DNA of 29,430 nt from a virus (taxonomy: Duplodnaviria; Heunggongvirae; Uroviricota; Caudoviricetes). The position numbers were made by a program, and so were the translations under genes. The notes beneath the pieces are model-generated. The model saw only the letters and a list, made by a program, of their open reading frames with translations, had not been told where the DNA came from and did not search any database. Each line of letters opens with the position of its first letter. Positions within the stretch are counted from its first letter, which is position 1. Location: IMG/VR virus record IMGVR_UViG_2778261668_000002, one strand, 5' to 3'. Below, piece by piece: positions 1 to 29,430 of this stretch.

Positions 1-981
1 TTATAACGTCACTCCGCCTTTTAGTGGATTCAGAGCGACGGCATTTTGCAGATAGTCAGGCGCAAGGTGCGCATAGGCCATCGTCTGCTGAATGCTCGCA
101 TGTCCCAGAATCTGTTGCAGTGCGATTATATTGCCCCCATTCATCATGAAATGGCTTGCGAATGTATGCCGCAGGATGTGGGTTGCCTGATTGGGTGGTA
201 TATCAGGTTTCACTCTGCGTAAAATCCCGCAAAATTTCTCATAATCAACTTTGAATAATTTGGCGCTGGCCTCCTCTTTAACTTTTTTCTCCAGTTCCTC
301 AGAAATCGGCACGGTTCGCTTTTTACCGTTTTTGGTTTTCAGGAAGGTAACCCTGCAATTTGTAATCTGTGCTGGTTTTAGCGTGGCAACTTCCGTCCAT
401 CTTCCTCCAGTGCTCAGACATAAAAGCGCGACAAGTAAGTCATCACCAGCCAAAACATTTAACAGTTTTTCGATTTCTGCTTTTTCCAGGAACGTCATTT
501 CAGGGTTGGCCTCCGCCAGTGGCGGCAGTCCGTGAATTGGGTGTTGCCCGGAAAATTCATCCAATTGAATTAATTTTGTGAACATGCCGGATAATCGGTA
601 CATGTCACGGTTTATCGTTGCGGCACTGATACCATCACGTAATCGCATGGAACGATAATCCATCAAAGCCCTTTTGCTCATCCTGCTCACTGGTATATCA
701 CCTATGCCGCTGATGGTTTTGAGTAGATGATTAAACTCTTTTGTTCCATGCTCGTGGTTTTGCCCGTGATATTTCCACCAGATGTCCAGCAACTCACTCA
801 AAGTCCGGCGGTCTGCTCGCTGGCCTCCCCATTCTTTCTGACTGGCATTGGCGATTGTGTATCGCTCAAATGCTAGTGCTTCAGCTTTTCTTTCGAATTT
901 CCTGCGGATGCGTTTTCCGTCGCGACCGCGAGGTCTAATGTCCACTTCATAGCGACCATCATCGAGCTTCTTAATTGCCAT
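1..981 (-). CDS. int: Tyrosine site-specific integrase (P2 Int family)
   Basis: Minus-strand ORF ending at position 1 with a C-terminal tyrosine-recombinase region (LRHTFASHFMMNGGNIIALQQILGH...MAYAH). Start placed at the ATG at 979-981 (MAIKKLDDGRYEV), which has a GGAGG Shine-Dalgarno 8 nt upstream; the track's longer ORF to 1011 has no ribosome-binding site. Confidence 0.9.
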   Translation of the reverse strand: MAIKKLDDGRYEVDIRPRGRDGKRIRRKFERKAEALAFERYTIANASQKEWGGQRADRRTLSELLDIWWKYHGQNHEHGTKEFNHLLKTISGIGDIPVSRMSKRALMDYRSMRLRDGISAATINRDMYRLSGMFTKLIQLDEFSGQHPIHGLPPLAEANPEMTFLEKAEIEKLLNVLAGDDLLVALLCLSTGGRWTEVATLKPAQITNCRVTFLKTKNGKKRTVPISEELEKKVKEEASAKLFKVDYEKFCGILRRVKPDIPPNQATHILRHTFASHFMMNGGNIIALQQILGHASIQQTMAYAHLAPDYLQNAVALNPLKGGVTL

Positions 982-1050
982 AAGAAAGCCCTCCGGCGCT
1001 GTATTCACCATCTTGGTAGCAAATGGTGAAAATGTAATCTTTATATAGAG

Positions 1051-3509: not shown

Positions 3510-5784
3510 AGCCTCCGGGCGTTTTGTCCCTCCGTCAGCATTTGCCGCAGGCACCGGTAAGGCGTTTACCGGTGCTTATGCATGGAACGCGCCACGCGAG
3601 GCCGTCGGGCGGGAAAGACCCCTTACACGTGACGAGATGCGTCAGGTGCAAGGTGTTTTATCCACGATTAACCGCCTGCCTTACTTTTTGCGCTCGCTGT
3701 TTACTTCACGCTATGACTACATCCGGCGCAATAAAAGCCCGGTGCACGGGTTTTATTTCCTCACATCCACTTTTCAGCGTCGTTTATGGCCGCGCATTGA
3801 GCGTGTGAATCAGCGCCATGAAATGAACACCGACGCGTCGTTGCTGTTTCTGGCAGAGCGCGACCAGTATGCGCGCCTGCCGGGGATGAATGACAAGGAG
3901 CTGAAAAAGTTTGCCGCCCGAATCTCATCGCAGCTTTTCATGATGTATGAGGAACTCTGCGATGCCTGGGTGGATGCGCATGGCGAAAAAGAATCGCTGT
4001 TTACGGATGAGGCGCAGGCTCACCTGTATGGTCATGTTGCTGGCGCTGCACGTGCTTTCAATATTTCCCCGCTTTACTGGAGAAAATACCGTAAAGGGCA
4101 GATGACCACGAGGCAGGCATATTCTGCCATTGCTCGCCTGTTTAACGATGAGTGGTGGATTAGTCAGCTTAAAGGCCAGCGTATGCGCTGGCATGAGGCG
4201 TTACTGATTGCTGTCGGGGAGGTCAATAAAGACCGTTCACCTTATGCCAGTAAACATGCCATTCGTGATGTGCGTGCGCGCCGCCAGGCAAATCTGGAAT
4301 TTCTTAAATCGTGTGACCTTGAAAACAGGGAAACCGGCGAGCGCATCGACCTTATCAGTAAGGTGATGGGCAGTATTTCTAATCCTGAAATTCGCCGGAT
4401 GGAGCTGATGAACACCATTGCCGGTATTGAGCGTTACGCCGCCTCAGAGGGTGATGTGGGGATGTTTATCACGCTTACCGCGCCGTCAAAGTATCACCCG
4501 ACACGTCAGGTTGGAAAAGGCGAAAATAAAACCGTCCAGCTTAATCACGGCTGGAATGATGAGGCATTTAATCCAAAGGATGCGCAGCGTTATCTCTGCC
4601 GTATCTGGAGCCTGATGCGCACGGCATTCAAGGATAATGATTTACAGGTCTACGGTTTGCGAGTCGTCGAGCCACACCACGACGGAACGCCGCACTGGCA
4701 TATGATGCTTTTTTGTAATCCACGCCAGCGTAACCAGATTATCGAAATCATGCGTCGCTATGCGCTCAAAGAGGATGGCGACGAAAGAGGAGCCGCGCGA
4801 AACCGTTTTCAGGCAAAACACCTTAACCGGGGCGGTGCTGCGGGATATATCGCGAAATACATTTCAAAAAATATCGACGGCTATGCACTGGATGGTCAGC
4901 TCGATAACGATACCGGCAGGCCGCTGAAAGACACTGCCGCGGCTGTTACCGCATGGGCGTCAACGTGGCGCATTCCGCAATTTAAAACGGTTGGCCTGCC
5001 GACAATGGGGGCTTACCGTGAACTACGCAAATTGCCTCGCGGCGTCAGCATTGCTGATGAGTTTGACGAGCGCGTCGAGGCTGCACGCGCCGCCGCAGAC
5101 AGTGGCGATTTTGCGTTGTATATCAGCGCGCAGGGTGGGGCAAATGTCCCGCGCGATTGTCAGACTGTCAGGGTCGCCCGTAGCCCGTCGGATGACGTTA
5201 ACGAGTACGAGGAAGAAGTCGAGAGAGTGGTCGGCATTTACGCGCCGCATCTCGGCGCGCGTCATATTCATATCACCAGAACGACGGACTGGCGCATTGT
5301 GCCGAAAGTTCCGGTCGTTGAGCCTTTGACTTTAAAAAGCGGCATCGCCGCGCCTCGGAGTCCTGTCAATAACTGTGGAAAGCTCACTGGTGGTGATACT
5401 TCGTTACCGGCTCCCACACCTTCTGAGCACGCCGCCGCAGTGCTTAATCTGGTTGATGACGGTGTTATCGAATGGAATGACCCGGAGGTCGTGAGGGCGC
5501 TCAGGGGCGCATTAAAACACGACCTGAGAACACCAAACCGTCAGCAAAGAAGCGGAAGCCCGTTAAAAGCGCATGAAATAGCGCCATCGGCCAGACTGAC
5601 CCGGTCGGAACGAATGCAAATTACCCGTATCCGCGTTGACCTTGCTCAGAACGGTATCAGGCCGCAGCGATGGGAGCTTGAGGCGCTGGTGCGTGGCGCG
5701 ACCGTAAATTATGACGGGAAAAAATTCACGTATCCGGTCGCTGATGAGTGGCCGGGATTCTCAACAGTAATGGAGTGGACATGA
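3499..5784 (+). CDS. A: Rolling-circle replication initiator endonuclease (P2 gpA family)
   Basis: 761-aa product from the ATG at 3499 (MAVKASGRF...; the track's ORF starts at an upstream TTG). Contains a metal-binding HxH motif (EPHHDGTPHWHMMLF) and a catalytic-tyrosine motif (GYIAKYISKNIDGY) typical of rolling-circle Rep proteins. Confidence 0.9.
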   Translation: MAVKASGRFVPPSAFAAGTGKAFTGAYAWNAPREAVGRERPLTRDEMRQVQGVLSTINRLPYFLRSLFTSRYDYIRRNKSPVHGFYFLTSTFQRRLWPRIERVNQRHEMNTDASLLFLAERDQYARLPGMNDKELKKFAARISSQLFMMYEELCDAWVDAHGEKESLFTDEAQAHLYGHVAGAARAFNISPLYWRKYRKGQMTTRQAYSAIARLFNDEWWISQLKGQRMRWHEALLIAVGEVNKDRSPYASKHAIRDVRARRQANLEFLKSCDLENRETGERIDLISKVMGSISNPEIRRMELMNTIAGIERYAASEGDVGMFITLTAPSKYHPTRQVGKGENKTVQLNHGWNDEAFNPKDAQRYLCRIWSLMRTAFKDNDLQVYGLRVVEPHHDGTPHWHMMLFCNPRQRNQIIEIMRRYALKEDGDERGAARNRFQAKHLNRGGAAGYIAKYISKNIDGYALDGQLDNDTGRPLKDTAAAVTAWASTWRIPQFKTVGLPTMGAYRELRKLPRGVSIADEFDERVEAARAAADSGDFALYISAQGGANVPRDCQTVRVARSPSDDVNEYEEEVERVVGIYAPHLGARHIHITRTTDWRIVPKVPVVEPLTLKSGIAAPRSPVNNCGKLTGGDTSLPAPTPSEHAAAVLNLVDDGVIEWNDPEVVRALRGALKHDLRTPNRQQRSGSPLKAHEIAPSARLTRSERMQITRIRVDLAQNGIRPQRWELEALVRGATVNYDGKKFTYPVADEWPGFSTVMEWT

Positions 5785-6236
5785 TGGCAAAAATTCACGA
5801 GGTAAAGCTGCACGCAAAATATTTTGACCTTGTGCTGGAAGGAAAGAAACGCGCAGAGTTTCGGAAAAATGACCGTAATTATGAGCGCGGGGACACGTTG
5901 ATTTTGCATGAATGGGCGCAGGGTGTGTATACGGGGCGAAAGGTTGAAGCCCGGATAACAGATGTTACTGACCTGTCAGACTGGCTGGAAGATTATGTCT
6001 TGCTAAGTATTGAGCTGCTTAATACAGGCGCATATGAGATTGTGAACTGGAAAGAACTTAGTGAGCGTGGTCTGGTATTCAGAATTAATCATGAAATTAT
6101 GCATCAGCTCGGCCTTGCTGTTATGTATGCACCAGAGACGGGGATGTCTGGCGGGGCAATGGTTGCCACGGATGGAGCATGGAACTATTCAGATGAACAG
6201 ATTGAGCGTGCAAAGCAAAACGGGTGGCTTGGATAA
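5781..6236 (+). CDS. ASCH/PUA-like (DUF3850-type) protein with a C-terminal extension containing an HExxH motif
   Basis: Start ATG overlaps the A stop (ATGA at 5781-5784). N-terminal EVKLHAKYFDLVLEGKKRAEFRKNDRNYERGDTLILHEW resembles ASCH-like domains; the C-terminal part contains NHEIMH. Confidence 0.55.
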   Translation: MMAKIHEVKLHAKYFDLVLEGKKRAEFRKNDRNYERGDTLILHEWAQGVYTGRKVEARITDVTDLSDWLEDYVLLSIELLNTGAYEIVNWKELSERGLVFRINHEIMHQLGLAVMYAPETGMSGGAMVATDGAWNYSDEQIERAKQNGWLG

Positions 6237-6442
6237 TGCACAGAATACCGGGCGAGATACCGCAACATAACACTAAAAATATCAAGCTGATGGCTATTGT
6301 TCACCGTCTACAGCAGATTATGGTCAACGAAAATCTGACGCCTGACGAGCTGGTCGGGTGTGCCGAAATAGTCCGGGATAATTACGGGCGGCTTAATTAT
6401 ATCCGTCAGTCCAGAGTTGCTCCACCGCCACGCAGACTATAG
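6236..6442 (+). CDS. Small hypothetical protein, translationally coupled to the ASCH-like gene
   Basis: TAATG overlap at 6234-6238; 68 aa; no recognisable motif. The track shows it from a GTG at 6224. Confidence 0.4.
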   Translation: MHRIPGEIPQHNTKNIKLMAIVHRLQQIMVNENLTPDELVGCAEIVRDNYGRLNYIRQSRVAPPPRRL

Positions 6443-6616
6443 AAAACGCCGTCAGTCTTGAAACTTGTTTTCAGGGCTGGCGGGGTTGAACAACGAGCAT
6501 CGCGAGGCGTTAGTGGTATTGGAACCAATGAGAAAACAAAAAACTCAACGCCTCCCCTCATGTTTGATGGTATGGTCTTGTTTTTAGGTAATGAAGCTTT
6601 ATTCGGGTGACGTGTC

Positions 6617-6622
6617 TAATAT
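6617..6622 (+). promoter_or_regulatory. Candidate -10 element (TAATAT) for the cargo gene
   Basis: TAATAT lies 36 nt upstream of the 6658 ATG in the AT-rich leader; no convincing -35 hexamer, so this is weak. Confidence 0.3.
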
Positions 6623-6657
6623 AGCTTTCTGCATGACGTTAGAATGATGATGAGATC

Positions 6658-7260
6658 ATGTTATTAATGAATGAGAAAAAAAGACAAAAATATCTAAAGA
6701 TAATGTTTGAATGTCAAAAGCGACTTGAAACACTTCATGCTTTATCATCTGGAAGGATTGATGGCATTTATTTTCAAGTGTTAATTGAAATGGAGGCGTT
6801 GCAGCTTAGGAAGCTACTAGAGCTCATTGCATTTTCATCTCTAATTTCACATGAAAAAGCATACGAGAAGGTTACAAAGAAGATTGATGGTGTATGGAAG
6901 GCGAAGAATATATTTAAAGAGTTGGAAAAGATAAACCCTAACTTTTATCCAGTACCAATATCAGGAGTAACCAAAACGGGCTGGACGAAACTAACGGGAG
7001 GTTTTTTGACGAAAAAACAGTTTATCAAGCTATATGATGAATGCTCAAAACATATTCACGTAAGGAACCCATATCGGGTTAGGGAAAACTCGCTGGGGTT
7101 TCATAAAAAAGTTCCAGAGTATTTATCAAGAATTGAAACTCTACTGTTAAAGCACATTGTTTCTCTTGCCGGGAATGAAGAACTTCTTCTTGTAGATGTG
7201 CCTCATTATGAAGACTCTGTAACAGCTATAAAAATGAGCCACCTCGTTAAAATGGGGTGA
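6658..7260 (+). CDS. Orphan AT-rich cargo gene in the P2 tin/old-equivalent slot; candidate single-gene anti-phage defence or abortive-infection protein
   Basis: 200-aa ORF (start 6658 or 6667) in an island of about 30-35% G+C by hand count; K/E-rich, no transmembrane segment; preceded by a 215-bp non-coding AT-rich leader and followed by a hairpin terminator; sits between replication gene A and cos. Confidence 0.65.
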   Translation: MLLMNEKKRQKYLKIMFECQKRLETLHALSSGRIDGIYFQVLIEMEALQLRKLLELIAFSSLISHEKAYEKVTKKIDGVWKAKNIFKELEKINPNFYPVPISGVTKTGWTKLTGGFLTKKQFIKLYDECSKHIHVRNPYRVRENSLGFHKKVPEYLSRIETLLLKHIVSLAGNEELLLVDVPHYEDSVTAIKMSHLVKMG

Positions 7261-7295
7261 AAAATAAGCAATAAATAGTCGATTCTAGTGAACGG

Positions 7296-7320
7296 TCGGC
7301 TATTTTTAGCCGGATTTTTA
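7296..7320 (+). terminator. Rho-independent terminator after the cargo gene
   Basis: Stem CGGCT (7297-7301) / AGCCG (7308-7312) with a T-rich loop, followed by GATTTTTA. Confidence 0.5.
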
Positions 7321-7478
7321 TACTGTTTCCCCTTAATTACAGTCGTTTCTATTCATGCATGTGCTATTGCATCGAATTGCATGCGTTTTCATCCCCTGTT
7401 GCTTATGAGCGTTGTCAGTGCTGGCGCATTCTCGGTATGTTCATGCAACTGCATCAAAATCGCCCCATGAAGCGGGCG

Positions 7479-7497
7479 GGCGAGGCGGGGAAAGCAC
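7479..7497. other. cos cohesive-end site of P2-type phages
   Basis: GGCGAGGCGGGGAAAGCAC matches my recollection of the 19-nt P2 cohesive end; it lies where cos is expected, between the cargo locus and portal gene Q. Confidence 0.55.
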
Positions 7498-7639
7498 TGC
7501 GCGCTGGCGGTGGTGCTGATTTTATTTTTTCGGCGTCTCAGCGCGTCGTGATGGCGTTTAGATTGTGTGCCGGGGCGTCGGTGTGTCTGCGGGCTGTTTT
7601 GCGTGGAGGTGAGCGTGTGAGGGCGTGATGACGGGGTGT

Positions 7640-7661
7640 AAAAAAGCCGCCCGCAGGCGGC
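7640..7661 (-). terminator. Rho-independent terminator of the P-Q operon
   Basis: On the minus strand GCCGCC-(4 nt loop)-GGCGGC followed by TTTTTT, immediately downstream of the Q stop at 7667. Confidence 0.6.
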
Positions 7662-7666
7662 GATGT

Positions 7667-8701
7667 TCAGCCGTTGTCAGTGTCCAGTGAGTAGTTTTTA
7701 AAGCGGATGACCTCCTGACCGAGCCAGCCGTTTATCTCGCGGATCCTGTCCTGTAGCGGGATAAGCTCATTGCGGACAAAGACCTTTGCCACTTTCTCAA
7801 TATCACCCAACGACCCGACGTTCTCCGGCTTGCCGCCCATCAACTGAAAGGGGATGCGGTGCGCGTCCAGCAGGTCAGCGGCGCTGGCTTTTTTGATATT
7901 AAAAAAATCGTCCTTCGTTGCCACTTCACTGAGCGGGATAATTTTAATGCCGTCGGCTTTCCCCTGCGGGGCATAGAGAAACAGATTTTTAAAGTTGTTG
8001 CGGCCTTTCGACTTCACCATGTTTTCGCGAAGCATTTCGATATCGTTGCGATCCTGCACGGCATCAGTGACGTACATGATGTATCCGGCATGTGCGCCGT
8101 TTTCGTAATACTTGCGGCGAAACAGCGTGGCCGACTCATTCAGCCAGGCAGAATTAAGGGCGCTGAGATATTCCGGCAGGCCGTACAGCTCCTGATTAAT
8201 ATCCGGCTCCAGCAGGTGAAACACGGAGCCGGGCGTGAAGGCTGTCGGCTCGTTGAAGGACGGCACCCACCAGTAAACATCCTCTTCCACACCACGGCGG
8301 GTATATTTTGCCGGTGAGGTTTCCAGTCTGATGACCTTACCGGTGGTGCTGTATCGCTTTTCCAGAAACGCATTACCGAACACCAGAAAATCCAGCACAA
8401 AGCGGCTGAAATCCTGTTGCGAAAGCCACGGGTGCGGGATAAACGTTGAAGCCAGAATATTGCGTTTGACGTAAATCGGTGAGCTGTGATGCACGGCAGC
8501 ACGCAGGCTTTTTGCCAGACCGGTAAAGCTGACCGGTGGCTCATACCATCTGCCGTTACTGATACACTCGACGTAATCCAGAATGTCACGGCGGTCGAGT
8601 ACCGGCACCGGCTCACCAAAGGTGAATGCCTCCATTTTCGGGGCGCTGGCGGTCATTGTTTTTGCCGCAGGTTGCGGTGTTTTCCCTTTTTTCTTGCTCA
8701 T
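7667..8701 (-). CDS. Q: Portal protein (P2 gpQ family)
   Basis: 344-aa minus-strand ORF adjacent to cos; its start overlaps the P stop (TGATG); length matches P2 Q. Confidence 0.9.
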   Translation of the reverse strand: MSKKKGKTPQPAAKTMTASAPKMEAFTFGEPVPVLDRRDILDYVECISNGRWYEPPVSFTGLAKSLRAAVHHSSPIYVKRNILASTFIPHPWLSQQDFSRFVLDFLVFGNAFLEKRYSTTGKVIRLETSPAKYTRRGVEEDVYWWVPSFNEPTAFTPGSVFHLLEPDINQELYGLPEYLSALNSAWLNESATLFRRKYYENGAHAGYIMYVTDAVQDRNDIEMLRENMVKSKGRNNFKNLFLYAPQGKADGIKIIPLSEVATKDDFFNIKKASAADLLDAHRIPFQLMGGKPENVGSLGDIEKVAKVFVRNELIPLQDRIREINGWLGQEVIRFKNYSLDTDNG

Positions 8702-10473
8702 CAGTAAAACTCCAGAATGGTGGATGTCAGCGGGGTGCTGATACCGGCGGTGAGTGGCTCATTTAACAGGGCGTGCATGGTCGCCCAGGCGAGGTCGGCG
8801 TGGCTGGCTTCCTCGCTGCGGCTGGCCTCATAGGTGGCGCTGCGTCCGCTGCTGGTCATGGTCTTGCGGATAGCCATAAACGAGCTGGTGATGTCGGTGG
8901 CGCTGACGTCGTATTCCAGACAGCCACGGCGGATAACGTCTTTTGCCTTGAGCACCATTGCGGTTTTCATTTCCGGCGTGTAGCGGATATCACGCGCGGC
9001 GGGATAGAACGAGCGCACGAGCTGGAACACGCCGACACCGAGGCCGGTGGCATCAATTCCGATGTATTCGACGTTGTATTTTCCGGTGAGTTTGCGGATG
9101 GATTCAGCCTGGGTGGCAAAGTCCATGCCTTTCCACTGGTGACGCTCAAGTATTCTGAATTTGCCACCGGCCACCACCGGCGGTGCCAGTACCACGCATC
9201 CGGCGCTGTCGCCACGGTGTGACGGGTCGTAACCAATCCATACCGGGCGGGAGCCGAACGGATTTGCGGCAAACGGCGCATAGTCTTCCCATTCTTCCAG
9301 CGTGTCGACCATGCAGCGTTGCAGCTCCTCGAACGGGAACACCGACGCCTTGTCGTCAACAAATTCACACATGAACAGGTTTTTAAAATCGTCGGCGCTG
9401 TTTTCACGTTTGAGCTGCTCAATGTCGAACAGCGTGCAGCCGCCTTTCAGGGCGTCCTCAATGGTGACAATCTGCCGCCACTGGCCGTCCGCACAGAGAA
9501 GCCCACCGGCAAGGGCGTTATGACTGACGTCGATTTCCACGCGTTCGGCGGCGCTGGCGCGTCCCCGGTTAAACAGTTCACCCGACCAGAACGGGTAGGC
9601 GTCGTGCGCCAGCGTGGACGGGGTGGAGAAATAGGTCGAGCGCAGGTGACTCTGTGAGGCCATACCTGATGCCACCTTACGCAGTACCTGAAAATTCGGG
9701 ATCCAGAAAATCTCGTCGACGTACAGGTCGCCGTTATGGCTCTGCGCGGTGTTGGAGTTGGTGCCGAGAAAAATCAGTTTTGCGCCGTTATTGCCCAGGA
9801 CAATCGGGTCACCGGTCAGGTCAACGTCAACCAGACGGGCAAAGGCGATGATGTATTCGCGGAACACATACGCCTGCGTTTTACTGGCCGACAGAAAAAT
9901 CTGGTTATGGCCGGTTTTCAGGGCGCGCAGCAGCGCCTCGCGGGAAAAATAAAACGTCGCGCCAATCTGGCGGGATTTCAGGATATCGCGGATGCGGTGC
10001 TCAAGCCCGGCGCGATACCAGTGCAACTGATAGTCGAAAGACTGCTCAAAGAAAATCTGCTCCAGCTTTTCGATGGCCTCGTCACTGAAAAAATTCTTTT
10101 TCGGTTTGCGTCGCCCGCCTTTGTTGCGGTTAGCGACGTTCGGATTAAGGTCTGCCTCGTTGCCGGTCTGGTTGTAGCGGTTTACCCGTGCCAGTCGTTC
10201 AATCTGGCGTCCGAGCAGGTCAATTTCCTTGAAGTCACCGCCGGTTTTCTGCGGTTTGATAATGAGCTGGGTCAGCCGCGCTTCCAGACTCATTTCGACA
10301 CGGCTGATGGGGGCAACGCTGTCCCAGCCGTCGCGCTGTTTCCAGCTCTGCACCGTCGGGCGTTTCATCTGCAACATGGCGGCAATCTGCGGCACGGAAA
10401 ACCCCTGCCAGTACAGCAGCGCCGCCTGACGACGCGGGTCGTGTAAAAGAGTGGTGTCTGTGGTGATGGTCAT
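8701..10473 (-). CDS. P: Terminase large subunit (P2 gpP family)
   Basis: 590-aa product from the ATG at 10471-10473 (MTITTDTT..., GAGGT ribosome-binding site); the track extends it to a TTG at 10503. Size and position match P2 P. Confidence 0.9.
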   Translation of the reverse strand: MTITTDTTLLHDPRRQAALLYWQGFSVPQIAAMLQMKRPTVQSWKQRDGWDSVAPISRVEMSLEARLTQLIIKPQKTGGDFKEIDLLGRQIERLARVNRYNQTGNEADLNPNVANRNKGGRRKPKKNFFSDEAIEKLEQIFFEQSFDYQLHWYRAGLEHRIRDILKSRQIGATFYFSREALLRALKTGHNQIFLSASKTQAYVFREYIIAFARLVDVDLTGDPIVLGNNGAKLIFLGTNSNTAQSHNGDLYVDEIFWIPNFQVLRKVASGMASQSHLRSTYFSTPSTLAHDAYPFWSGELFNRGRASAAERVEIDVSHNALAGGLLCADGQWRQIVTIEDALKGGCTLFDIEQLKRENSADDFKNLFMCEFVDDKASVFPFEELQRCMVDTLEEWEDYAPFAANPFGSRPVWIGYDPSHRGDSAGCVVLAPPVVAGGKFRILERHQWKGMDFATQAESIRKLTGKYNVEYIGIDATGLGVGVFQLVRSFYPAARDIRYTPEMKTAMVLKAKDVIRRGCLEYDVSATDITSSFMAIRKTMTSSGRSATYEASRSEEASHADLAWATMHALLNEPLTAGISTPLTSTILEFY

Positions 10474-12636: not shown

Positions 12637-13374
12637 ATGACGAGTCCCGCACAGCGCCACATGATGCGGGTCTCGGCAGCGATGACCGCGCAGCGGGAAG
12701 CCGCCCCGCTGCGACATGCAACTGTCTATGAGCAGATGCTGGTCAAGCTGGCCGCAGACCAGCGCACACTGAAAGCGATTTATTCAAAAGAGCTTAAGGC
12801 CGCGAAAAAACGCGAACTGCTGCCGTTCTGGTTGCCGTGGGTGAACGGCGTGCTGGAGCAGGGCAAAGGTGCACAGGATGACATTCTGATGACGGTCATG
12901 CTGTGGCGTCTGGATACCGGCGATATTGCCGGTGCGCTGGAGATTGCCCGTTATGCCCTGAAGTACGGTCTGACCATGCCGGGTAAACACCGCCGCACCC
13001 CGCCGTACATGTTCACCGAGGAGGTGGCGCTCGCGGCCATGCGTGCTCACGCTGCCGGTGAGTCTGTGGATACCCGCCTGCTGACGGAGACCCTTGAACT
13101 GACCGCCATGGCTGACATGCCTGATGAAGTGCGCGCAAAGCTGCACAAAATCACCGGTCTGTTTCTGCGTGACGCTGGTGATGCCGCCGGTGCGCTGGCG
13201 CACCTGCAACGTGCGACACAGCTCGACTGTCAGGCAGGCGTCAAAAAAGAGATTGAACGACTGGAGCGGGAGCTGAAACCGAAGCCGGAGCCAAAAGCGG
13301 TCACCCGCGCCCCGCGTAAGACCCGGAGCGTGACACCGGCAAAACGTGGACGCCCGAAAAAGAAAACCAGTTAA
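12637..13374 (+). CDS. M: Terminase small subunit (P2 gpM family)
   Basis: 245-aa ORF with a basic C-terminal tail (PAKRGRPKKKTS); synteny. Confidence 0.85.
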   Translation: MTSPAQRHMMRVSAAMTAQREAAPLRHATVYEQMLVKLAADQRTLKAIYSKELKAAKKRELLPFWLPWVNGVLEQGKGAQDDILMTVMLWRLDTGDIAGALEIARYALKYGLTMPGKHRRTPPYMFTEEVALAAMRAHAAGESVDTRLLTETLELTAMADMPDEVRAKLHKITGLFLRDAGDAAGALAHLQRATQLDCQAGVKKEIERLERELKPKPEPKAVTRAPRKTRSVTPAKRGRPKKKTS

Positions 13375-16841: not shown

Positions 16842-16907
16842 TTGTGCCATTCCTGACACCTCATCGTCACATTGCCGCCGGTATGACCCGGCGGCATCCT
16901 TCCCGTT

Positions 16908-18800: not shown

Positions 18801-19404
18801 TTCGCGCCTGCTGCCGACCGGCTCATCACCGCTTGAAGTTGCCGCCGCAAAAGCCTGTGCGGAAATTGAAAAAACGCCGGTCAGTATTCGTGAGCTGTGG
18901 AACCCGGACACCTGCCCGGCAAATCTGCTGCCGTGGCTGGCGTGGTCATTTTCGGTTGACCGCTGGGATGATAAGTGGCCGGAAGCGACAAAACGCGCTG
19001 TTATCCGCGATGCGTATTTCATTCACTGCCATAAGGGCACTATAGGCGCAATCCGGCGTGTGGTGGAGCCGCTCGGCTATCTGATTGAGGTAAGGGAGTG
19101 GTGGCAGCTCAACGAGGAGCCGGGGACGTTCCGTATCGTTGTTGGCGTGCTTGAGCAGGGTATTACCGAAGAAATGTATCAGGAGCTGGAGCGCCTCGTT
19201 GCTGATGCAAAACCGGCAAGCCGCCATCTGACGGGACTGGCTATCAGTTTAAGTACAAACGGCAACATTTTTGCCGATGCGGGATGCTATCACGGCGACG
19301 CCCTGACGGTTTATCCCTACACCCCGGAGGCCATTATTGTCGGAGGGGATTATTTCCCGGCCTCGGCCATTCATTTAATTGATAACCTGAGAGTAAACGC
19401 ATGA
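18793..19404 (+). CDS. I: Baseplate protein (P2 gpI family), longer than the P2 protein as I remember it
   Basis: 203-aa ORF overlapping the J stop; synteny. Confidence 0.8.
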   Translation: MSDSRLLPTGSSPLEVAAAKACAEIEKTPVSIRELWNPDTCPANLLPWLAWSFSVDRWDDKWPEATKRAVIRDAYFIHCHKGTIGAIRRVVEPLGYLIEVREWWQLNEEPGTFRIVVGVLEQGITEEMYQELERLVADAKPASRHLTGLAISLSTNGNIFADAGCYHGDALTVYPYTPEAIIVGGDYFPASAIHLIDNLRVNA

Positions 19405-20732
19405 CAGTGAAATACTACGCCATTCTGACTAATCAGGGCGCAGCACGGCTGGCTAACGCGACGATGCTCGGCAGTAAGCTGAATCTGACGCAAATGGCCG
19501 TTGGTGATGCGAATGGTGTCTTGCCGACACCAGACCCGGCACAGACAAAACTGATTAACCAGAAACGCATCGCGCCGCTGAATCTTCTGAATGTTGACCC
19601 GAACAACCAGAGCCAGATTATTGCGGAGCAAATCATCCCTGAGAACGAGGGCGGATTCTGGATCCGTGAGATTGGGCTTTATGATGATGAAGGCGTACTC
19701 ATTGCGGTGGCGAACTGCCCGGAAACGTACAAACCGCAGTTGCAGGAAGGCAGCGGTCGTACCCAGACTATCCGCATGATTCTGGTTGTCACGAATACCG
19801 AAGCTATCACGCTGAAAATCGACCCGTCGGTGGTACTGGCGACCCGTAAATACGTGGATGATGAAGTCCTGGAATTAAGGCTGTATGTGGATGACCAGAT
19901 GAGGAACCATATTGCCGCACAGGATCCTCATACCCAGTATGCACAGAAACATAATCCGACATTTACCGGAGAACCAAAAGCGCCGACGCCTGCCGCAGGA
20001 AATAACACCACGCGGATTGCGACCACTGAGTTTGTTCAGGCCGCTATTACCGCTCTGATTAACGGTGCGCCAGCCACGCTGGACACACTGAAAGAAATTG
20101 CCGCAGCCATTAACAATGACCCGAAATTCAGCACCACCATTAACAATGCGCTGTCAGGTAAGCAGCCACTGGATGAGACGCTGACTCATTTGAGTGGAAA
20201 GGATGTTGCCGGTCTTCTCGCATACCTTGGTTTAGGGGAAGGCTCTGCTTTGCCGGTTGGCGTCCCCATTCCGTGGCCGTCAGCAACACCCCCAACGGGA
20301 TGGCTTAAGTGCAACGGAGCGGCGTTCACGGCCTCCCAGTACCCTAAGCTGGCTCAGGCCTATCCGGCGCTCAGACTGCCTGATCTACGCGGGGAGTTTA
20401 TCCGGGGATGGGATGATGGGCGTGGGGTTGATGCAGGAAGGGAATTACTGTCAAGCCAGGAGCATACCGTCATATCCCACAATCACGCGATTCCTACGAC
20501 GGTTAATACTCCAACTGCTATCCCTCCAGGTGTAGAGCAGGTGATAGCAAATGAAACTATTTTTTCTCCTGCAGCTCAATACGGATGTGACTATTGGGCT
20601 AATGGAGGCAGGACATTCACCTATATGTCTGGCGGCAAAAATGGTGCGGAGAACATCAATGATGCCTCATCAATGAAAGGTGAAACTCGTCCACGCAACG
20701 TCGTATTTAACTACATCGTGAGGGCTGCATAA
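19401..20732 (+). CDS. H: Tail fibre protein H: constant N-terminal part plus the currently expressed invertible C-terminal part
   Basis: 443 aa; N-terminus MTVKYYAILTNQGAARLANA typical of P2-like fibres; the C-terminal part contains RGEFIRGWDDGRGVD. The hix-like site at 20215-20240 lies inside the coding frame. Confidence 0.85.
   Translation: MTVKYYAILTNQGAARLANATMLGSKLNLTQMAVGDANGVLPTPDPAQTKLINQKRIAPLNLLNVDPNNQSQIIAEQIIPENEGGFWIREIGLYDDEGVLIAVANCPETYKPQLQEGSGRTQTIRMILVVTNTEAITLKIDPSVVLATRKYVDDEVLELRLYVDDQMRNHIAAQDPHTQYAQKHNPTFTGEPKAPTPAAGNNTTRIATTEFVQAAITALINGAPATLDTLKEIAAAINNDPKFSTTINNALSGKQPLDETLTHLSGKDVAGLLAYLGLGEGSALPVGVPIPWPSATPPTGWLKCNGAAFTASQYPKLAQAYPALRLPDLRGEFIRGWDDGRGVDAGRELLSSQEHTVISHNHAIPTTVNTPTAIPPGVEQVIANETIFSPAAQYGCDYWANGGRTFTYMSGGKNGAENINDASSMKGETRPRNVVFNYIVRAA
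20215..20240. repeat. hix-like 26-bp recombination site (left) inside gene H
   Basis: TTCTCGCATACCTTGGTTTAGGGGAA; 22 of 26 positions, including the central TTGGTTTAGG, match the reverse complement of the site at 22094-22119, and it resembles the hix/gix consensus as I remember it. Confidence 0.6.
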
Positions 20733-21334
20733 TGGTCAAAGCTGAATTAAATCAGGACATGATCGCCACGGTGGCCGGTGAAATCACCGTCTACAACTAC
20801 GATGGCGAGACGCGCGAATATCTTTCCACATCAACTGAATATCTTGCGGTTGGCGTCGGCATCCCGGCATGTTCTTGTTTAGATGCACCAGTTACACATA
20901 AAGCTGGTTATGCAATCTGCCGTTCTGCAGATTTTAACTCATGGGAATATGTGCCAGACCATCGCGGTGAAATTGTCTATAGCACCGAAACGGGAGATAC
21001 CAAAGAAATCACAACTCCGGGCGACTATCCCGAAAATACAACCACCCTCGCCCCGTTAACGCCATACGATGAATGGGATGGTGAGAAATGGGTGACAGAT
21101 ACTGAGGCACAGCATAGCGCCGCAGTAGGCGCGGCAGAAGCACAGCGTCAGTCACTGATTGATACTGCAATGGCTTCCATTAGTCTGATTCAACTGAAAT
21201 TGCAGGCCGGGCGGAAGCTGATGCAGACAGAAAACACCCGACTTAACGCTGTGCTGGATTACATTGACGCGGTGACGGCAACAGATACCAGCACCGCGCC
21301 GGACGTCATCTGGCCTGAACTGCCGGAGGCGTAG
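20732..21334 (+). CDS. G: Tail fibre assembly chaperone (gpG/Tfa family), inside the invertible segment
   Basis: 200-aa ORF with a TAATG overlap with H. Confidence 0.75.
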   Translation: MVKAELNQDMIATVAGEITVYNYDGETREYLSTSTEYLAVGVGIPACSCLDAPVTHKAGYAICRSADFNSWEYVPDHRGEIVYSTETGDTKEITTPGDYPENTTTLAPLTPYDEWDGEKWVTDTEAQHSAAVGAAEAQRQSLIDTAMASISLIQLKLQAGRKLMQTENTRLNAVLDYIDAVTATDTSTAPDVIWPELPEA

Positions 21335-21746
21335 GCCATTCAATATCTGGCGCACCGGAAGTATCGACCAGTTCCAGTGCGTCCAGATAATCCAGCCACA
21401 AATTATATTGCGCCAGTTCCTCACCTTTCAGGCGACCAATCGCCGCTTTACCAGGCCATTGCTTACTGTTTATGTATTCGTTGACCTGATCAATCAATTG
21501 CTGCTTTTCCAGTTCGGCTGCGGCAATTTGTTCCTCATGAGTTGGCGGTGGAATATCAATCCATGCAGGCATTCCGTCGATGACGCCTCTGTATTTTCCT
21601 TCTGGTGCTTCCTTCATAAATTCGGCGGCAACAGTGTCGTCAATTTCGATTCCATCATCGGGCCATTCGCCGGATTCCTGATAAGCGATTTTAAGCTCCA
21701 CAGGGAAAAACGCATTTTTATCGGCACTGAAAATATATTTCTGCAT
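21306..21746 (-). CDS. Alternative tail fibre assembly chaperone (Tfa), opposite orientation
   Basis: 146-aa minus-strand ORF; its C-terminus (LVDTSGAPDIEWPTPPA) is similar to the gpG C-terminus (ATDTSTAPDVIWPELPEA). Confidence 0.7.
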   Translation of the reverse strand: MQKYIFSADKNAFFPVELKIAYQESGEWPDDGIEIDDTVAAEFMKEAPEGKYRGVIDGMPAWIDIPPPTHEEQIAAAELEKQQLIDQVNEYINSKQWPGKAAIGRLKGEELAQYNLWLDYLDALELVDTSGAPDIEWPTPPAVQAR

Positions 21747-21748
21747 TT

Positions 21749-22147
21749 CTACCGTCCTATCGAAATATAACTGAATCTGTATTGCTGTGAGATATCACTG
21801 GTTGCCACACGCCACGCTGAATTACTGATATGTTCAAAATTTACAGACAAAACCTGCGGGGCAGGATTCGACGGGTCTGACTGAACGGCATCAGACATAA
21901 CACTGACTGAAACCATTGGCTGATTAGGGAATGGTATAGGGAAGTGTCCACTGATAAAGCGGGTCGTGTTTCCTGAAAAAGTGCCAAACTGAACAATATA
22001 TCCACCTGGTAGCCTGAACCATCCCGAACCAGAAGCGAATGCTCCCATATCCGGTATCTGATTATCTCCTGTGCCCACATCCCTTTTCGCCGCTTCTCCT
22101 AAACCAACGTTTATGAAAATGCAGAGATAACGGGCAACTGGCATCAT
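21749..22147 (-). CDS. Alternative tail fibre C-terminal segment, silent in this orientation; would fuse to the constant part of H after inversion
   Basis: Minus-strand reading frame running into the hix-like site at 22094-22119 and encoding ...VGLGEAAKRDVGTG..., which matches ...AYLGLGE at the hix site inside H. Confidence 0.65.
   Translation of the reverse strand: MMPVARYLCIFINVGLGEAAKRDVGTGDNQIPDMGAFASGSGWFRLPGGYIVQFGTFSGNTTRFISGHFPIPFPNQPMVSVSVMSDAVQSDPSNPAPQVLSVNFEHISNSAWRVATSDISQQYRFSYISIGR
22094..22119. repeat. hix-like 26-bp recombination site (right), about 55 bp upstream of the invertase gene
   Basis: TTCTCCTAAACCAACGTTTATGAAAA; inverted relative to the site at 20215-20240. Confidence 0.6.
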
Positions 22148-22174
22148 CTCCGGTTTTTATTCAGGGGGATGCTC

Positions 22175-22768
22175 ATGCTTATTGGCTATGTACGCGTGTC
22201 AACAAATGACCAGAACACGGAATTGCAGCGTAACGCGCTGGAGTGCGCGGGATGTGAGCGGATTTTTGAGGACAAAATCAGCGGCACGAAGTCCGACAGG
22301 CCGGGACTGAAAAAACTGCTCAGGACATTATCGGAGGGGGATACACTGGTAGTCTGGAAGCTGGACCGGCTGGGGCGTAGTATGCGGCATCTGGTCATTC
22401 TGGTTGAGGAGCTGCGCGAACGCGGCATTAATTTTCGCAGCCTGACGGATGCTATTGATACCAGCACGCCGATGGGGCGTTTTTTCTTTCATGTGATGGG
22501 TGCCCTGGCTGAAATGGAACGAGAACTCATTGTCGAGCGGACTCGGGCCGGGCTGGAAGCGGCCAGAGCCAAAGGTCGTATTGGTGGCAGACGACCGAAA
22601 CTCACCGCGAGTGAGTGGGAGCAGGCCGGGCGTTTGCTGGCTGCAGGGGAGTCACGTCAACGCGTGGCACTGATTTTTGATATTGGTCTGTCCACGCTCT
22701 ATAAAAAATTTCCCTCATCAGCGACAAAGAATAAATTGTGTCATCCCTTAGCCAACCGGGACAAATAG
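22175..22768 (+). CDS. Hin/Gin/Cin-family serine DNA invertase
   Basis: N-terminus MLIGYVRVSTNDQNTELQRNAL with the catalytic serine context and a C-terminal HTH (GLSTLYKKF); GGGGG ribosome-binding site 6 nt upstream of the ATG at 22175. Confidence 0.9.
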   Translation: MLIGYVRVSTNDQNTELQRNALECAGCERIFEDKISGTKSDRPGLKKLLRTLSEGDTLVVWKLDRLGRSMRHLVILVEELRERGINFRSLTDAIDTSTPMGRFFFHVMGALAEMERELIVERTRAGLEAARAKGRIGGRRPKLTASEWEQAGRLLAAGESRQRVALIFDIGLSTLYKKFPSSATKNKLCHPLANRDK

Positions 22769-29211: not shown

Positions 29212-29430
29212 ATGTTTCATTGTCCTTTATGCCAGCATGCCGCACATGCGCGTACAAGCCGCTATATCACTGACACGACAAAAGAGCGTTATCACCAGTG
29301 TCAGAACGTGAATTGCAGCGCCACGTTCATCACCTATGAGTCGGTACAGAGATACATCGTGAAGCCGGGAGAAGTCCACGCCGTAAGGCCGCACCCGTTG
29401 CCGTCAGGGCAGCAAATTATGTGGATGTGA
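29212..29430 (+). CDS. ogr: Late-gene transcriptional activator Ogr (zinc-finger protein)
   Basis: 72 aa from the ATG at 29212: MFHCPLCQHAAHARTSRYITDTTKERYHQCQNVNCSATF... with a CxxC-N22-CxxxxC zinc-binding pattern; the track extends it to a TTG at 29149. Confidence 0.9.
   Translation: MFHCPLCQHAAHARTSRYITDTTKERYHQCQNVNCSATFITYESVQRYIVKPGEVHAVRPHPLPSGQQIMWM

Follow-up and report, generated by a model that had tools for sequence, protein, structure and literature searches.

The 29,430-nt window analyzed here (the whole of IMG/VR record IMGVR_UViG_2778261668_000002) very probably carries a functional cos site of a P2-like (Peduovirus) E. coli prophage. We assign this reading a probability of about 0.93 because an exact copy of the P2 19-nt cohesive end, the conserved core around it, and the cognate terminase genes are all present (Table 1; signed positions are counted from the cut). 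The feature itself is already known: it is the textbook P2 cos with its adjoining terminator and hotspot (Padmanabhan, Wu, and Calendar, 1974; Ziermann and Calendar, 1990).

A pattern search of the whole window finds GGCGAGGCGGGGAAAGCAC as a single copy with 0 mismatches, compared with a chance expectation, from shuffled sequence, of a mean of 0.03 matches for a 19-mer with up to 3 mismatches allowed. This sequence is annotated in NC_001895 both as "cosL; left cohesive end" (1-19) and as "cosR; right cohesive end" (33575-33593), and it is also given as the cohesive end for P2-related phages (PMC3931495). The original prediction had taken the 19-mer for the P2 cohesive end. Alignment to P2 cos, which had been set beforehand as the test, bears this out with 19/19 identity: P2 base 1 falls at 7479, where the BLAST alignment between the window and P2 opens (9.4 kb, 97.6% identity). 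At least 20 independent phage records recovered in two phage-collection searches are linearized (start or end) at the equivalent base, including P2, Wphi, L-413C, fiAA91-ss, PSP3, EtG, R18C, and HQ103, and several of them have an explicit cos annotation. Within the P2/P4/186-type cohesive-end pattern, GGCG(A/T)GGCGGGGA(A/T)AGCA(C/T), the window has the exact P2 version. The G/C-rich surroundings previously ascribed to the 19-mer are likewise present: GC content, which is 0.33-0.39 in the cargo, climbs to about 0.58 over 7400-7700.

Table 1. Coordinates of the cos region, its flanking elements, and the associated genes in the window.
Feature	Position	Strand	Basis or remark
int	1-1011	-	Expected Pfam domain
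Orf91-like gene, left edge of variable region	5784-6236	+	DUF3850/ASCH and C-terminal DUF7415
68-aa cargo-island ORF	6236-6442	+	phrog_11386
197-aa cargo gene, last before right virion end	6667-7260	+	phrog_13799; GC 0.33-0.39
Intrinsic terminator downstream of cargo gene	7296-7321	+	-11.8 kcal/mol, z = -3.1
Three TGCAT boxes	7356-7360, 7368-7372, 7378-7382	+	At -123, -111, and -101 from the cut
cos core, -36 to +26	7443-7504	+	Conserved in 114 loci; common to P2, P4, and 186; literature
Proximal ATGCAACTGCAT, TGCA(T) box pair	7443-7454	+	Followed by A4 tract, 7456-7459
Inverted repeat CGCCC-N8-GGGCG abutting top-strand nick	7461-7478	+	Contains near-invariant AAGCGGGC (-9 to -2)
Predicted nicks	Top 7478/7479, bottom 7497/7498		5' overhangs; cosL/cosR match and record ends
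19-nt cohesive end (cosN equivalent)	7479-7497	+	Exact match to annotated P2 cosL/cosR; record ends
TGCGCGC block 3' of bottom-strand nick	7498-7504	+	Near-invariant
Right flank: GGCGGTGGTGC, AT-rich stretch, CGTCTCAGCGCGTCG	7505-7545	+	Kept only among P2/186-like phages
tQ, intrinsic terminator of P-Q late operon	7640-7661	-	Stem 7646-7661, U-run 7640-7645
gpQ, portal gene	7667-8701	-	PF04860; 99.4% identical to P2 gpQ
gpP, large terminase subunit, predicted to cut cos	8701-10473	-	PF06056, PF03237, PF17289; 99.7% identical to P2
gpM, small terminase subunit, presumed to recognize cos	12637-13374	+	PF05944; 97.2% identical to P2
ogr	29212-29430		100% identical to P2

Conservation around the cut was assessed by aligning 120 IMG/VR loci matching GGCGNGGCGGGGANAGCA, with column conservation calculated over the 114 unique loci, and the IMG/VR cos loci were compared with P2, P4, 186, pro483, and vB_YpM_50. 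The stretch from -36 to +26 is conserved, and corresponds to the "55-bp" core of Ziermann and Calendar common to P2/P4 and relatives, as cited in later literature (PMC3931495; PMC9594776). Near-invariant blocks across the 114 loci comprise TGCA at -35 to -32, TGCAT at -29 to -25, AAAA at -23 to -20, AAGCGGGC at -9 to -2, and TGCGCGC at +20 to +26. The last of these lies outside the search pattern, and is conserved in 112-113 of the 114 loci at +20 to +25 and in 110 at +26. For the proximal boxes, TGCAT occurs at -29 in 80/83 non-redundant loci and ATGCA at -36 in 53/83. Every near-invariant block is preserved in the window. At seven columns between -40 and +30, all naturally variable, it carries something other than the most frequent base. 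Only two of its bases are rare, namely C at -24 (8% of loci) and T at -19 (2%), both in variable columns; the latter is also found in vB_YpM_50, which was deposited with Y. pestis EV76-CN as host.

The two predicted nicks are preceded on their 5' sides by GCGGGCG (top strand) and GCGCGCA (bottom strand), both near-invariant in the 114 loci (window 7472-7504). Since GCGCGCA, the reverse complement of the TGCGCGC block, mirrors the GCGGGCG on the left, each nick is preceded by GCGSGCR, giving partial twofold symmetry around the 19-bp stagger. Two inverted repeats were considered as structural elements and set aside. The repeat abutting the top-strand nick folds with z = -0.8 relative to shuffles, and its arms show no co-variation in 186 and pro483; as the fold is no better than that of shuffled sequence, 7461-7478 is more likely to be a protein site than a hairpin. 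A second repeat, GCGCCAG..CTGGCGC (at roughly -66 to -50), recurs in many relatives, but the window has only a degraded copy and P2 has none, so it is not essential. An Rfam scan (E ≤ 1) of 5700-7800 returned no match to an RNA family. An 89-aa ORF on the + strand (7359-7628) spans cos, and its equivalent appears as a "hypothetical protein" in several deposited phage genomes; we treat it as spurious, and probably a mis-annotation, because conservation tracks islands of DNA motifs and no reading frame.

To the right of the core, P2/186-like phages share a moderately conserved flank (GGCGGTGGTGC, an AT-rich run, and CGTCTSAGCGCGTCG) that extends to the terminator, whereas the P4-like elements are unrelated to this flank beyond +26. 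The terminator begins 6 nt past the portal stop codon, on the Q strand, and consists of a GCCGCC-TGCG-GGCGGC stem with 6 GC pairs and a 4-nt loop, with U6 after it (-14.4 kcal/mol). P2 has the identical sequence, annotated as "tQ; putative rho-independent terminator for P operon", and the earlier proposal of a minus-strand terminator for the P-Q operon at this location thus agrees both with the P2 annotation and with folding as an intrinsic terminator. cos lies just beyond the portal gene and its terminator, where the non-essential right-end region adjoins, as expected of a P2/P4/186-type cos site.

Further to the left, three TGCAT boxes lie at a fixed distance from the cut, and the left flanks of the compared loci are mostly unrelated outside these boxes. 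TGCAT or ATGCA is counted 160 times in the interval -140 to -120 and 206 times in -120 to -100, against about 5 per 20 bp elsewhere. A TGCAT starts within -103 to -99 in 66/83 non-redundant loci, within -113 to -109 in 67/83, and within -128 to -119 in 60/83; 74/83 have two or all three of the boxes, with a background rate of 0.0011 per position. They occur in 15/15 P4-like loci (psu on the left), and at least two occur in 63/72 P2-like loci (portal on the right), with P2, P4, and 186 themselves carrying TGCAT boxes at the same offsets. Spacings are 12, 10, and 72 bp, the last running to the core TGCAT at -29, and are roughly in helical phase.

These boxes are probably a distal terminase-recognition element of cos, most plausibly for gpM. 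Three considerations suggest a packaging element: cos is described in the literature as the sole homologous region between P2 and P4, the pentamer recurs within the core at -29, and the spacing is roughly helical. Together with the proximal ATGCAACTGCAT (7443-7454), the distal boxes would be candidate terminase-recognition elements with a cosB-like role. A more elaborate proposal, which we advance tentatively and with more doubt than confidence, is that the cos packaging signal would include the distal array, and that this array would serve both as a docking site for gpM and as the inner limit for insertion of hotspot cargo. A distal gpM-docking array, if real, would account for the results of PMC9594776, in which P2/P4 cosmids were transduced ~11,600- to 50,800-fold better once a short packaging signal had been exchanged for one with more flanking sequence about the 55-bp core; these results lend indirect experimental support to a packaging role for the boxes. 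Full-text literature searches for TGCAT in connection with cos, or for terminase-binding repeats in P2-like cos, returned nothing relevant; the boxes may already have been noted by Ziermann and Calendar (1990). If they do belong to the packaging signal, they would aid the design of efficient P2/P4 cosmids and the computational delimitation of the hotspot.

The boxes could alternatively be promoter or operator elements of the adjoining cargo genes, or sites for host or regulatory proteins, with no role in packaging. The old-tin transcripts of P2 have their start points at 33424 and 33426, or -151 and -149 relative to the cut, which puts the -35 region of this leftward promoter over boxes 1 and 2. 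Yet the position and orientation of the boxes are constant whatever the cargo or the direction in which it is transcribed; the cargo of the window, for instance, is oriented toward cos and stops at a terminator of its own. The boxes are also kept in all 15 P4-like satellites, which have the 3' end of psu as their left flank. Retention irrespective of cargo orientation, and in P4, fits poorly with a promoter function, as do the P2/P4 homology confined to cos and the TGCAT within the core, and we regard this explanation as unlikely.

The likeness of the window to P2 extends across most of the site: the 19-nt cohesive end, the +20 to +26 block, and tQ are identical, -36 to -1 is the same save for 3 substitutions, cos lies between an accessory locus and gene Q, and the TGCAT boxes stand at -123, -111, and -101 in both. 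The two differ in the spacer at -100 to -37, where the window bears no relation to P2 and resembles pro483, 186, and P4 instead, and in the cargo on the left: the window has a 68-aa and a 197-aa gene on the + strand, and P2 has tin and old on the minus strand. Satellite P4 (NC_001609), which is packaged by the P2 terminase, has the same 19-mer, the -36 to +26 core, and the three TGCAT boxes at equal distances; it differs in its unrelated right flank past +26, in lacking structural genes, and in having its hotspot to the right of cos, whereas that of P2-like phages is mainly on the left. Phage 186 (NC_001317) has the same cos architecture and boxes, with its portal terminator tW in the equivalent place, but its 19-mer differs at 2 positions (GGCGTGGCGGGGAAAGCAT) and its base at -1 is A, where the window has G.

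The window extends from the stop codon of int to that of ogr, with cos internal, and the ogr-int interval of roughly 200 bp in which P2 carries attP is missing from it. With int and ogr at its ends, the attP interval missing, and cos inside, the window is in prophage order and not virion order, as the original prediction had it. The genes int, A, gpQ, gpP, gpM, and ogr all have the expected Pfam domains, and the A replication gene is 97.4% identical to that of P2. About 20 complete E. coli chromosomes carry the 2-kb gpA-cos-gpQ segment at 100% identity. The copy in E. coli 2009C-3133 belongs to a related prophage inserted between cpxP and fieF, which has int at one end and ogr at the other. 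As the window carries neither host flanks nor attP, we infer from this that the element is probably integrated, and it may be inducible. P2-type prophages are not known to be SOS-inducible.

Packaging may be envisaged as follows. By analogy with P2 biology, prophage excision and replication would yield circular monomers. Such monomers are the packaging substrate of P2, as opposed to the concatemers of lambda. Terminase (gpM and gpP) would recognize the conserved core and, if its chemistry is that of P2, make two nicks 19 bp apart, so that the packaged chromosome would have 5'-GGCGAGGCGGGGAAAGCAC cohesive ends. Virion DNA would then run from 7479 through Q, P, the late genes, and ogr to the attP junction, and on through int, the early genes, A, and the cargo to 7497, which would place the accessory genes (6236-7260) at its extreme right end. 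The minus-strand hairpin at 7646-7661 would stop the P-Q late operon before read-through into cos. The cosQ-cosN-cosB site of lambda is comparable as a functional analogue only: staggered nicks, partial twofold symmetry, cutting by a TerS-TerL holoenzyme, and separate repeated recognition elements to one side are common to both, with the roles of the flanking elements in P2 being putative. The sequences are unrelated, and the overhangs are 12 nt in lambda versus 19 nt here.

It is conceivable, although very improbable, that this is a remnant in a defective prophage, that is, a P2 cos by descent, out of use since excision or packaging was lost. The genome is about 4 kb shorter than that of P2, but records of 28.9-29.5 kb with this cos type have been deposited as complete (pro483, STYP1, and GMS190), and every P2 essential gene is present as a full-length ORF in syntenic position. 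Similarly, the two rare substitutions in the cos core could be read as decay, but the near-invariant positions are all intact, and identity to P2 is 97-99.7% for the terminase and portal proteins. The complete E. coli genomes searched contain no full-length identical prophage, which would favor a remnant; vB_YpM_50 has the same cargo-cos segment (97.5% identity), which tells against one. The chance that the 19-mer is an accidental or unrelated G-rich match, with the true cos elsewhere, is negligible given that the match is perfect and occurs only once in the window, and that the 60 bp flanking it and 9 kb of downstream synteny begin exactly at this sequence. The reading of a functional cos site is thus retained.

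The position of cos fixes the virion map, and it places the unannotated 197-aa gene in the classic cos-proximal accessory slot, a known target in the search for new anti-phage genes. This slot, between gpA (or Orf91) and cos/gpQ, varies in gene content among relatives that are otherwise collinear, and holds tin and old in P2 and ORF11 in pro483. The cargo had been placed at the end of the virion genome and read as consistent with a moron next to cos. In keeping with this, the ORF ends (7260) 237 bp from the predicted right virion end (7497), has low GC content, and occupies the tin/old slot. Rousset et al. (2022, PMC9122126) define the cos-adjacent gpA-gpQ locus of P2-like phages as a defense hotspot (see also PMC13586616), and 1,650 arrangements of it are reported in the literature; the corresponding locus of 186-like prophages is covered by Dodd and Egan (1996). 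A supplementary table lists the gene arrangement of the window, "DUF3850/ASCH + hypothetical + hypothetical" (WP_024187708, WP_021519102, and WP_021519103; PMC9122126), and a moron next to cos is therefore consistent with published knowledge. The accessible parts of that paper report no anti-phage activity for these three proteins. The Orf91 homologue of the window is longer than that of P2 (150 aa vs. 109 aa). A 224-bp non-coding gap (6443-6666) separates the 68-aa ORF from the cargo gene; it has no Rfam match, and promoter scans of it were not above chance.

No Pfam, NCBIfam, PADLOC, or PDB sequence-profile match was obtained for the 197-aa cargo protein. Its homologues, about 80 in number, come from Gammaproteobacteria and other groups, and R48, E52, H131, N134, P135, and H163 are invariant among them. 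The AlphaFold (AF2) model of the cargo protein is confident (pLDDT 89, pTM 0.87), and Foldseek searches of PDB and BFVD with this model gave no structural match with E < 0.4. The best PDB matches, which are non-significant, are to HEPN toxins, and this resemblance may serve as a weak lead. With no known domain, a confident model without a significant match, and a location in a validated defense hotspot, the protein is a reasonable candidate for functional testing. A 76%-identical homologue in Enterobacter occupies the same gpA-gpQ slot, sometimes as the sole gene there, and a 52%-identical Pseudomonas homologue is chromosomal. The Enterobacter P2-like prophages with the cargo homologue have extra genes between cos and the portal gene, encoding proteins of 172 aa and 399 aa at one locus (L131, 8759-11370) and a DUF2188 protein at another (L133, 8759-9160), so that either side of cos can accommodate cargo.

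Several other parts of the window depart from P2. The non-essential P2 orf30 (786 bp) is absent, and the S and V homologues stand 64 bp apart (16844-16907). The int/C/cox module (1-1754) is of a different type from that of P2 (int 52% identical), which implies a different immunity and attachment site. The tail-fiber region (19401-22768) also differs, and the Z/fun locus is absent; in order, it comprises a tail fiber gene, an assembly gene, an inverted assembly gene with an alternative fiber C-terminus, and a serine invertase gene (22169-22768; Resolvase and HTH_7 domains), a layout resembling the invertible segments of Gin/Cin/Pin type that determine host range.
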